Source: Escherichia coli (GTDB taxonomy: Bacteria > Pseudomonadota > Gammaproteobacteria > Enterobacterales > Enterobacteriaceae). From it: a DNA stretch of 30,698 nt. The stretch is taken from NCBI RefSeq assembly GCF_003334785.1, contig NZ_QOWV01000028.1. One strand, given 5' to 3'. A program made the position numbers and the translations under genes. This document shows, piece after piece, positions 183 to 2,958 of the stretch; position 1 is the stretch's first letter; every line of letters starts with the position of its first letter. The notes beneath the pieces are model-generated. The model saw only the letters and a program-made list of their open reading frames with translations. It made no database searches and was not told where the DNA came from.

Positions 183-1196
183 TTATTTGTTGTTGCGCAG
201 ATCCAGCGCCACGTCAACGATCATATCCTCCTGGCCGCCAACCATCCGGCGTTTGCCCAGCTCAACGAGAATATCCACCGCACTTAAGCCATAACGCGCC
301 GCCGCCGTTTCACAGTGACGCAGGAAGCTCGAGTAAACACCAGCGTATCCCAGCGCCAGCGTTTCGCGATCGACTCGTACCGGTCGATCCTGCAACGGAC
401 GCACCAGGTCGTCGGCGGCATCCATTAACGCATAGAGATCGGTCCCATGCTGCCAGCCCAGTTTATCCGCGGCGGCAATAAACACTTCCAGCGGTGCGTT
501 ACCTGCGCCCGCGCCCATTCCCGCGAGGCTGGCGTCGATTCGGTCGCAGCCCTCTTCCACCGCCGCGATAGAGTTCGCCACGCCAAGACTCAGGTTATGG
601 TGAGCGTGCATGCCAGTTTGCGTTTCTGGTTTCAGCTCTGCTTTCAGGGCGCGGAAACGGTCACGGATATCGCTCATGTTCATCGCACCGCCAGAATCCA
701 CCACATAAATACAGGTCGCACCGTAGCCTTCCATCAGCTTTGCCTGCTTGGCGAGATTCTCCGGCGTGGTCATATGGCTCATCATCAGAAAACCAACGGT
801 GTCCATTCCGAGCTCGCGGGCATACTGAATATGCTGGGCGGAAACATCAGCTTCGGTACAGTGCGTTGCCACACGAACCACCCGCGCGCCAGCCTGCCAG
901 GCATTTTTCAGATCGTGAATAGTGCCGATTCCTGGCAGCAACAACGTCGCGATTTTGGCGTGCTTCACCACATCCGCCGCCGCTTCAATCCATTCAAGGT
1001 CGCTATGTGCGCCGAAACCATAGTTAAAGCTGGAACCTTGCAAACCGTCGCCGTGGGCCACTTCAATCGAATCCACGCGGGCATCGTCCAGTGCTTTGGC
1101 AATCTGGCGAACGTTTTCCAGCGAATACTGATGACGAATGGCGTGCATACCGTCACGCAATGTGACGTCCGAGATATAAAGTTTTTTACCGTTCAT
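183..1196 (-). CDS. mhpE: 4-hydroxy-2-oxovalerate aldolase
   Basis: ORF track 337 aa beginning [25 protein letters not shown]; length and sequence match MhpE as I remember it; last gene of the mhp operon, 4-bp ATGA overlap with mhpF. Confidence 0.95.
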
Positions 1197-2143
1197 GCCG
1201 CTTCTCCTGCCTTGCGCGCCAGTGACTGGGCCATTTTTTCCGCTGTCGCCAGCGCACTGGAAGTCATAATGTCGAGGTTGCCCGCATAGGCAGGCAGATA
1301 ATGCGCTGCGCCTTCGACTTCCAGCCAGACCGCTGTTTTCAGTCCGGAGAATTGCCCCACGCCCGGTAAATTGACCGGTTTATCCTGCGGGATAACTTCA
1401 AACTGCACGCGCTGTTTCAGGCGATAACCCGGTACGTAAGCCTGCACCGCCTCAGCCATTTCATTGATTGAGGCTTCGATATCATCTTGTGAAGCTTCGT
1501 CGCTCAATACATACACCGTGTCACGCATCATCAACGGTGGCTCTGCTGGGTTAAGCACAATAATCGCCTTCCCTTTTGCCGCGCCGCCCACCACTTCAAT
1601 GGCTCGGGAAGTGGTTTCCGTAAATTCATCGATATTGGCACGCGTGCCAGGTCCGGCAGATTTACTGGCGATAGAAGCGATAATTTCGGCGTAATGAACA
1701 CGCGCCACGCGTGAAACTGCCGCCACCATTGGAATGGTGGCCTGGCCGCCGCAGGTGACCATGTTGACGTTCAGTTGATCGACGTTCGCCTCGAGGTTAA
1801 CCACCGGCACGCAGTAAGGGCCGATGGCAGCAGGCGTCAGGTCAATTAAGCGAATATCCGGTTTCGCTTCGCGTAAAGCGGCATCGTTTTTCACATGAGC
1901 ACCGGCGCTGGTCGCATCAAATACAATGTCGATATCAGCAAATTCAGGCATGTTCATCAGTCCGATCACCCCTTCATGGGTGGTGGCGACGCCCATACGT
2001 CTGGCGCGCGCCAGACCGTCGGACTGAGGATCAATGCCAACCATCACCGCCATCTCCAGATGCTGACCGTGACGCAAAATTTTAATCATCAGATCGGTAC
2101 CAATGTTGCCAGAACCGATAATGGCGACTTTACGCTTACTCAT
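1193..2143 (-). CDS. mhpF: acetaldehyde dehydrogenase (acylating)
   Basis: ORF 316 aa, [24 protein letters not shown] (NAD-binding GxGxxG N-terminus); canonical MhpF length; overlaps mhpD stop by 4 bp. Confidence 0.95.
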
Positions 2144-2949
2144 GACAGACTTCCTTTTGGGGCTGCGCTTGAAAATGTCGCAGCAACTGAACCTATGCCT
2201 TCAATATGGGCTTCAAAACGATCGCCCGCATTCACCGCCACCATCGGACCTAATGCCCCGGTAAGAATGATATCTCCGGTGCGCAGCGGTTCACCCAGAC
2301 TGGCCATTTTGCGTGCCAGCCAGACGGCCGCATTAAGCGGATGTCCCAGGCATTCGCTGCCGCGCCCGCTAGAAACCTCTTCGTTATTACGCGTCATCTT
2401 CATGGCGCAGTTTTTCAGGTCTAACCCCGCCGGACGTTGCGCCGGACCGCCGATGACATACACCCCACAGGAGGCGTTATCTGCCACGGTATCGACAAAC
2501 TGAATCGACCAGTCGCGAATGCGGCTCCCCACCACTTCCAGCGCCGGAAGTACCCATTCAATGGCGTTATACAATTCGTCGAAGGTGATATCGGTTGCGG
2601 GCAAATCGCGGTTCAACACCAGTGCGATCTCCGCTTCAATGCGGGGTTGCAGAACACGGGAAAAAGGAATGATTTCGTTATCGCCATAACACATGTCGGC
2701 AAATAACGTCCCAAAATCCGGTTGATCAACGCCCAGTTGTTGTTGCACTTTCGGATGTGTCAGGCCCACTTTACGCCCTACCACGCGACGCCCCTGCGCA
2801 ACGTCATGTTGCACATTTATGTGCTGAATGGCGTAAGCCGCTTCAGCGTTATCGATACCAATCAGATCGCGCAGCGGTGCAATCGCTTCGCCCTGCTCTG
2901 CGGCGCGGCGTAAATCCGCCGCCAGTTGCTCAAGAGTATGCTTCGTCAT
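2140..2949 (-). CDS. mhpD: 2-keto-4-pentenoate hydratase
   Basis: ORF track gives 271 aa ([10 protein letters not shown]...); the canonical 269-aa protein starts [15 protein letters not shown], so I place the start at the second in-frame ATG (2949). Start choice is from memory of the annotation, not from sequence alone. Confidence 0.9.
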
Positions 2950-2958
2950 GACCATTCC

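Follow-up and report, generated by a model that had tools for sequence, protein, structure and literature searches.

Three consecutive genes of the Escherichia coli mhp operon, mhpD, mhpF and mhpE, are joined by four-nucleotide overlaps in which the stop codon of one gene runs into the start codon of the next. The locus raises the question whether these overlaps couple the translation of neighboring genes, and whether such coupling serves the assembly of a stoichiometric aldolase-dehydrogenase complex of MhpE and MhpF. The original prediction took the overlaps of the three genes as a signature of coupling, consistent with such a complex. The two junctions are best considered separately.

Anatomy of the mhp junctions

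The window is the whole stretch of E. coli chromosome analyzed here, 30,698 nucleotides extending from mhpE to yahL. It carries the mhpABCDFE operon on the minus strand as well as lacI-lacZYA, cynXST/R, codBA, prpBCDE/R and yahL-O. The mhpABCDFE operon encodes the catabolism of 3-(3-hydroxyphenyl)propionate, and the original description of the cluster is reportedly that of Ferrández et al. 1997 (J Bacteriol). Positions 1100-3000 of the window are 100% identical to several RefSeq genomes, and the region is found at a coverage of at least 80% in 4,847 of 5,426 complete E. coli genomes, where it is 97-100% identical. A second E. coli genome, matching positions 5700-30698 of the window at 99.9%, encodes the same MhpD, MhpF and MhpE proteins. 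The three genes are co-directional and adjacent on one strand (minus), and a single transcript mhpABCDFE is given in supplement file 4 of PMC10666635. The features of the locus are as follows.

4789..6453, minus strand: mhpA (open reading frame list, PGAP)
3843..4787, minus strand: mhpB (open reading frame list, PGAP)
PGAP start at 3825, minus strand: mhpC, start ambiguous
2140..2949, minus strand: mhpD, 2-keto-4-pentenoate hydratase, 269 aa, stop TGA at 2142..2140 (open reading frame, PGAP, PDB 1SV6)
1193..2143, minus strand: mhpF, acylating acetaldehyde dehydrogenase, 316 aa (open reading frame, PGAP, match to 1NVM chain B)
183..1196, minus strand: mhpE, aldolase (open reading frame, PGAP, match to 1NVM chain A)
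2140..2143, minus strand: ATGA overlap mhpD/mhpF (mhpF ATG 2143..2141, mhpD TGA 2142..2140)
1193..1196, minus strand: ATGA overlap mhpF/mhpE (mhpE ATG 1196..1194, mhpF TGA 1195..1193)
2152..2156, minus strand: Shine-Dalgarno AAGGA for mhpF, 8 nt before the ATG, in the last mhpD codons (K-G-S)
1204..1208, minus strand: Shine-Dalgarno AGGAG for mhpE, 7 nt before the ATG, in the C-terminal tail of mhpF (A-G-E)

The minus-strand reading, the open reading frame list and PGAP all bear out the ATGA-type 4-bp overlaps at 2140-2143 and 1193-1196. The same 4-nt overlaps are present in the RefSeq/PGAP annotation of two E. coli genomes, and the K-12 pairs mhpD-mhpF and mhpF-mhpE are each listed at a distance of -4 in the supplement of Huber et al. 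2023 (PMC10666635). The observation is confirmed and is correct but ordinary: both overlaps were already known from annotations and a published genome-wide table, and they represent nothing new in kind. The remaining junctions of the operon are at +1 (A/B), +17 (B/C) and +9 (C/D), so that all five are compact. The predicted span of 1193-2955 stands at its 1193 end. The other end, 2955, is where the longest open reading frame has its first ATG, and it sets the mhpD start 6 nt too far upstream. PGAP uses the second ATG at 2949, which yields 269 aa, and the crystallized MhpD (1SV6, 269 residues) aligns over residues 1-269 to residues 1-269 of the MhpD in the window. An AAGGA Shine-Dalgarno motif directly abuts the ATG at 2955 and lies 6 nt before the ATG at 2949.

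The overlaps go beyond chance when compared with random sequence, but not when compared with the relevant background of operon junctions. Of all spacings between co-directional genes in E. coli, the -4 ATGA arrangement is the most frequent, and distances of -8 to +6 nt account for 707 of 2,987 pairs (Huber et al. 2023, PMC10666635). Among the 18 co-directional adjacent pairs of the window, two have the -4 spacing and both belong to mhp. The codB/codA pair of the window overlaps by 11 nt.

Both Shine-Dalgarno motifs are located inside the upstream gene. The AAGGA motif of mhpF is identical and equally spaced in Citrobacter, Pseudocitrobacter, Kluyvera and Pluralibacter. The motif of mhpE is encoded by the final residues of MhpF (…ARKAGEAA). 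MhpF is unconserved beyond 'MAQS' when seven orthologues are aligned, and the E. coli protein is ~6 residues longer at its C-terminus than the Pseudomonas proteins. The additional tail spans what is spacer elsewhere. As it is unconserved, the tail that carries the mhpE Shine-Dalgarno motif is under little protein-level constraint. The strong motifs that mhpF and mhpE each possess could also allow independent initiation.

Protein partners and the spacing of orthologous junctions

MhpF and MhpE are each homologous over their full length to a co-crystallized pair of the DmpFG family, whose bifunctional complexes join a 4-hydroxy-2-oxovalerate aldolase to an acylating acetaldehyde dehydrogenase. 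MhpF matches chain B of 1NVM (E = 1.5e-159) and MhpE matches chain A (E = 1.8e-184). The two proteins likewise match the paired chains in 8IH7, 4JN6 and 4LRS, and in all four entries the chains of the two kinds are equal in number. The aldolase-dehydrogenase complex is a property of the family with a structure solved four times; the DmpFG structure is reportedly that of Manjasetty 2003. The PDB entries searched with MhpF and MhpE included no structure of the E. coli MhpEF complex itself. Unless the dehydrogenase is present, aldolases of this family (MhpE, BphI and HsaF) are reported to have low solubility. Coupled expression of MhpE and MhpF is, going by its title, the subject of Lee et al. 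2006, which is said to address aldolase solubility without the partner dehydrogenase.

MhpD presents a different picture. It matches 1SV6 and 2WQT, both of which are entries with MhpD alone, and it is homologous to the hydratase subunit of 8IH6 (E = 6e-84). The partner in that hydratase family is 4-oxalocrotonate decarboxylase (PMC10470539; 8IH6 chains A and F), and the mhp operon contains no 4-oxalocrotonate decarboxylase. Given that MhpD was solved alone and that the operon lacks the decarboxylase partner, the overlap between mhpD and mhpF is left unexplained by complex assembly.

Junction spacing was compared across 86 orthologous loci, comprising 6 annotated plasmid loci and 80 species-level genomic loci retrieved through an alignment of MhpF. 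At each locus, the end of the hydratase gene, both ends of the dehydrogenase gene and the beginning of the aldolase gene were located by tblastn; a start-picking rule then weighed codon type, Shine-Dalgarno motif and where a candidate start falls with respect to the E. coli N-terminus. On the six plasmid loci, the script and PGAP agree at all junctions except the hydratase-dehydrogenase junction of pWW0, where the plasmid table contains no hydratase gene. The distance of 130 nt obtained there is probably spurious, caused by a disrupted xylJ frame in that record, and leaves the conclusions unaffected; the identical junction in locus L019 measures 14 nt.

In 83 loci, the window included, an aldolase gene follows the dehydrogenase gene. 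The dehydrogenase-aldolase junction is at -4 in 24 of these loci, at -1 in 2, at 0 to 5 nt in 17 and at 6 to 20 nt in 33, with larger gaps in 6 and a single overlap of -8. The junction is tight (overlapping or separated by at most 20 nt) in 77 of the 83 loci, with a median of +4 nt. The hydratase-dehydrogenase junction, assessed in 71 loci, is looser: it is tight by the same definition in 38 loci and has a median of +14 nt (-4 in 14 loci, -1 in 1, 0 to 5 nt in 7, 6 to 20 nt in 16, larger gaps in 32). Both medians agree with the table of Huber et al. 2023 (PMC10666635), which gives 1.85 nt for COG4569@COG0119 (n = 276) and 12.9 nt for COG3971@COG4569 (n = 187).

The rationale of a stoichiometric complex can be judged against both sets of results. 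It is supported for mhpF-mhpE, where the homologues are co-crystallized and the junction is tight in nearly all loci. It fails for mhpD-mhpF, with MhpD being no partner of MhpF or MhpE and the spacing being poorly conserved. The -4/-4 form is shared, together with the same Shine-Dalgarno motifs, by all enteric relatives (Citrobacter, Pseudocitrobacter, Kluyvera and Pluralibacter), and the mhp and xyl/dmp-type loci of Pseudomonas have spacers of +10 to +13. Strict evolutionary conservation of the ATGA form was considered and rejected given its presence in only 24 of 83 dehydrogenase-aldolase and 14 of 71 hydratase-dehydrogenase junctions. Across the orthologous loci, the conserved trait is the tightness of the dehydrogenase-aldolase junction rather than its ATGA form. 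The exact overlap is not required for the complex because dmpFG/xylQK-type loci, whose DmpFG was crystallized, use +10/+11 spacers.

Close spacing of genes for interacting proteins has a wider precedent. Heteromeric-complex subunits make up 30.4% of E. coli pairs spaced at -8 to +10 nt compared with 6.8% where the distance exceeds 20 nt, and the enrichment of such subunits among short-distance pairs is 4.5-fold (PMC10666635). In the genome-wide table of that study, the mhpF-mhpE pair is nevertheless entered as 'not complex' (Huber et al. 2023, PMC10666635). With crystallized homologues of both proteins at hand, this score implies that the published enrichment is slightly underestimated.

Translational coupling and its alternatives

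Describing the overlaps as a signature of translational coupling has a fair prior, yet is short of proof. Four of five native E. coli -4 pairs were found to be coupled by termination-reinitiation, with bioBF being the exception, and removal of the Shine-Dalgarno motif lowered reinitiation in four of five tested -4 pairs (Huber et al. 2019, PMC6728339). On the other side stand bioBF and the Shine-Dalgarno motifs that mhpF and mhpE have of their own. [quoted passage not shown] 2023, PMC10666635). A text search of the literature for mhpF or mhpE together with translational coupling returned nothing on point. Weighing these observations, we consider it rather probable that the mhpF/mhpE overlap mediates real translational coupling, and we infer the mechanism and the benefit for assembly from the same material.

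A ribosome terminating at the mhpF UGA would sit on the mhpE AUG, which begins one base upstream and is preceded at 7 nt by AGGAG. Most likely, the terminating ribosome would re-initiate at this AUG, and its passage may also melt local structure covering the mhpE ribosome-binding site. Synthesis of MhpE would be tied roughly 1:1 to that of MhpF, with MhpF being made first. The aldolase might then fold on a dehydrogenase that is already complete, giving rise to the substrate-channelling complex. The same geometry would allow re-initiation at mhpD/mhpF. Coupling there is probably partial and has no complex-assembly rationale, and the overlap is best read as operon compaction. Independent initiation of mhpF is at least as likely as reinitiation because its ribosome-binding site is predicted to be open, is strong, and no complex joins the two proteins.

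Predicted accessibility of the start codons distinguishes the two junctions. Opening energies were obtained as partition-function estimates over the ribosome footprint (-18 to +12). The values are 9.1 kcal/mol for mhpA, 10.6 for mhpB, 5.6 for mhpC, 10.3 for mhpD, 6.8 for mhpF and 12.5 for mhpE, the highest of the six mhp starts. Relative to a local coding background of 14.6 +/- 3.3 kcal/mol, determined at ten positions within the coding sequence of the locus, the mhpF start is predicted to be clearly opened and the mhpE start is not. This predicted pattern is repeated in all five enteric orthologues, and the mean unpaired probability of the Shine-Dalgarno motif is 0.61 for mhpF and 0.13 for mhpE. 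When the two starts are compared across all loci, the predicted cost of opening is higher for the aldolase than for the dehydrogenase in 48 of 69 pairs (Wilcoxon p = 0.001, shared ancestry ignored). Measured against background, aldolase starts in the -4 arrangement are opened less (median -3.5 kcal/mol) than those behind spacers of 0-20 nt (-6.3 kcal/mol), at a similar G+C of 0.61 and 0.60 (Mann-Whitney p = 2e-4, shared ancestry ignored). The modeling suggests that the mhpE start is occluded and would depend on coupling, with the mhpF start being open.

The main alternative is that the overlaps arose by neutral compaction. Overlaps would then be by-products of stop-codon loss, with each gene initiating independently at its own Shine-Dalgarno motif, and matched output of MhpF and MhpE would stem from ribosome-binding sites of similar strength. 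Much of the anatomy is compatible with this: the motifs are strong and ideally spaced, the overlap is interchangeable with spacings of -1, +1 to +4 and +10 to +14 among orthologues, and the MhpF tail after 'MAQS' extends without conservation through the spacer region. The path between the forms is also short. Among non-overlapping aldolase genes, 44 of 56 already start with ATGA. A spacer of +11 keeps the phase of the -4 form, so that a single stop-codon loss interconverts the two, and in 11 of 50 short-spacer junctions the loss of one stop codon would yield the E. coli -4 arrangement. The predicted openness of the mhpF ribosome-binding site and the bioBF precedent of a -4 overlap without coupling (PMC6728339) point the same way. 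However, most tested E. coli -4 pairs are coupled (PMC6728339), the predicted occlusion of the mhpE ribosome-binding site is similar to that of ordinary coding sequence, and the dehydrogenase-aldolase spacing is kept tight across phyla, far more so than the hydratase-dehydrogenase spacing. As an account of both overlaps, we regard neutral compaction as unlikely, though it deserves serious weight.

A second alternative is a sub-mechanism of coupling. Translating ribosomes might only unmask the mhpE start by melting the structure that hides its Shine-Dalgarno motif and AUG, whereupon a fresh 30S subunit would initiate, the terminating ribosome would be recycled and the 4-nt overlap would be irrelevant. 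Unmasking is an established coupling mechanism, reviewed with others in PMC12548453, and the low unpaired probability and high opening energy predicted for mhpE would suit it. The structures themselves argue against it. Junction RNAs from -99 to +30 are no more stably folded than their dinucleotide shuffles (z = -0.49 and -0.56 for the two junctions), and predictions are inconsistent among methods. A consensus fold of six enteric sequences pairs the Shine-Dalgarno motif and AUG with conserved DIMTS codons and differs from the single-sequence minimum free energy structure. These pairs never vary and hence provide no covariation evidence; the consensus contained no informative covariation around the Shine-Dalgarno motif and AUG. 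A special RNA structure at the junctions was rejected as evidence on the basis of the shuffles and covariation, and is retained as a weak trend in accessibility. [quoted passage not shown] Unmasking without reinitiation seems improbable to us.

Finally, the erroneous longest-ORF start originally chosen for mhpD and the ambiguous start of mhpC might raise the suspicion that a true mhpF or mhpE start lies elsewhere and an overlap is unreal, but this is barely credible and was rejected for both genes, since the next in-frame mhpF starts would delete the GxGxxG nucleotide-binding motif (residues 10-15; a later start is implausible because the motif begins at residue 10), the next in-frame mhpE starts would delete a conserved N-terminal segment of 12 residues, alignments to crystallized homologues begin at residues 1-3, and the start-picking script, in agreement with PGAP, gave no alternative start. 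Misannotation holds for the predicted mhpD start only.

Returning to coupling by termination-reinitiation, we tentatively propose that the two overlaps differ in nature. At mhpF/mhpE, a buried ribosome-binding site could make aldolase synthesis obligatorily dependent on the dehydrogenase, and finished MhpF could act as the assembly partner of nascent MhpE. At mhpD/mhpF, where the ribosome-binding site is predicted to be open, the overlap could reflect neutral stop-codon loss. Lineages with the ATGA form might have experienced relaxed selection for an accessible aldolase ribosome-binding site. This composite scenario is possible but doubtful as a whole.

The significance of the overlaps goes little beyond confirming the annotation of a textbook operon. 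The mhpF-mhpE pair adds one more case to the general pattern in which overlapping genes frequently code for partners in a single complex. Metabolic engineering with MhpE or related aldolases should retain the native mhpF-mhpE junction or at least co-express both genes.

Relation to known systems

The E. coli K-12 mhpABCDFE operon is the same locus: the gene names agree, and both junctions are likewise at -4. [quoted passage not shown] 2019 (PMC6728339). The hydratase-decarboxylase complex of the DmpE/DmpH type (8IH6) resembles the locus in that MhpD is homologous to the hydratase, but mhp is without the decarboxylase. The closest paradigm is dmpFG/xylQK of Pseudomonas (DmpFG, 1NVM). It encodes the same two enzymes in the same gene order with a similarly tight junction, and the dehydrogenases share ~80% identity. 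Both systems combine a 1:1 complex, attributed to E. coli by homology, with a Shine-Dalgarno motif ~7 nt before the ATG. The Pseudomonas dehydrogenase ends ~6 residues before the end of E. coli MhpF, and a spacer of +10/+11 nt follows at dmpFG/xylQK-type loci. Relative to this paradigm, the only difference of mhp is the -4 overlap in place of the +10/+11 spacer.

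Start codons and overlaps outside the mhpD-mhpF-mhpE junctions

Two in-frame ATG codons, at 2955 and 2949, could serve as the start of mhpD (window 2947-2961). The Shine-Dalgarno motif AAGGA abuts ATG 2955 and lies 6 nt ahead of ATG 2949, the latter being the start used both by the RefSeq annotation (PGAP) and in the 269-residue crystal construct. The longest open reading frame of mhpC begins at GTG 3888, which would create a 46-nt overlap with mhpB. The PGAP start is ATG 3825, encoding 288 aa with AGGAG ahead of it and a spacer of +17, and two additional ATG codons are located slightly upstream, at 3840 and 3828 (window 3823-3888).

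Overlapping genes also occur elsewhere in the window. The annotated codB/codA overlap spans 11 nt (18883-18893), or 26 nt if the longest codA reading frame is taken, and belongs to a class different from, and rarer than, the ATGA type. In the annotation, yahM also shares 31 nt with the gene for a 60-aa "hypothetical protein" (window ~29630-29660; 29931-29961 in the coordinates of the annotated genome L088), an arrangement that looks like a doubtful gene call.

Repeats and retention of mhpDFE among E. coli genomes

REP-type repeats are found immediately 3' of mhpE, where the Rfam naRNA4 match scores 79 bits, and in two further intervals of the window, including the 439-nt prpC-prpB spacer.

REP and naRNA4 repeats in the window
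1-48 and 102-149, downstream of mhpE: two REP-type repeats of 48 nt, 94% identical; Rfam RF02564 (naRNA4) over 3-80
20298-20374, codB-prpE interval: naRNA4/REP match
25148-25405, prpC-prpB spacer: three tandem naRNA4/REP copies with a 93-nt period

The mhpDFE region (query, window 1100-3000) has no match in 510 of the 5,426 complete E. coli genomes (~9%). JM109 retains just the final ~100 nt of the query, a remnant that marks the end of the known lac-region deletion. Strain 720632 is 100% identical over the entire query, yet its mhpA is a pseudogene with an internal stop.

Probable MhpF-MhpE complex and possible origin of the ATGA overlap

The E. coli table of Huber et al. 2023 (PMC10666635, supplement file 3) scores mhpF-mhpE as "CMPLX not" (K-12 pair NGHB#339). 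Judging from sequence homology, this score is probably a false negative of the data set, because MhpF and MhpE are close homologues of the subunits in four co-crystallised aldolase-dehydrogenase complexes.

The Pseudomonas mhp clusters (L003 and L015) carry a +11 spacer between the two genes, whereas in E. coli the equivalent stretch is coding and is crossed by the C-terminal MhpF tail …LARKAGEAA (window 1193-1220). As the +11 spacer is in phase, the loss of a single stop codon would yield the ATGA overlap.
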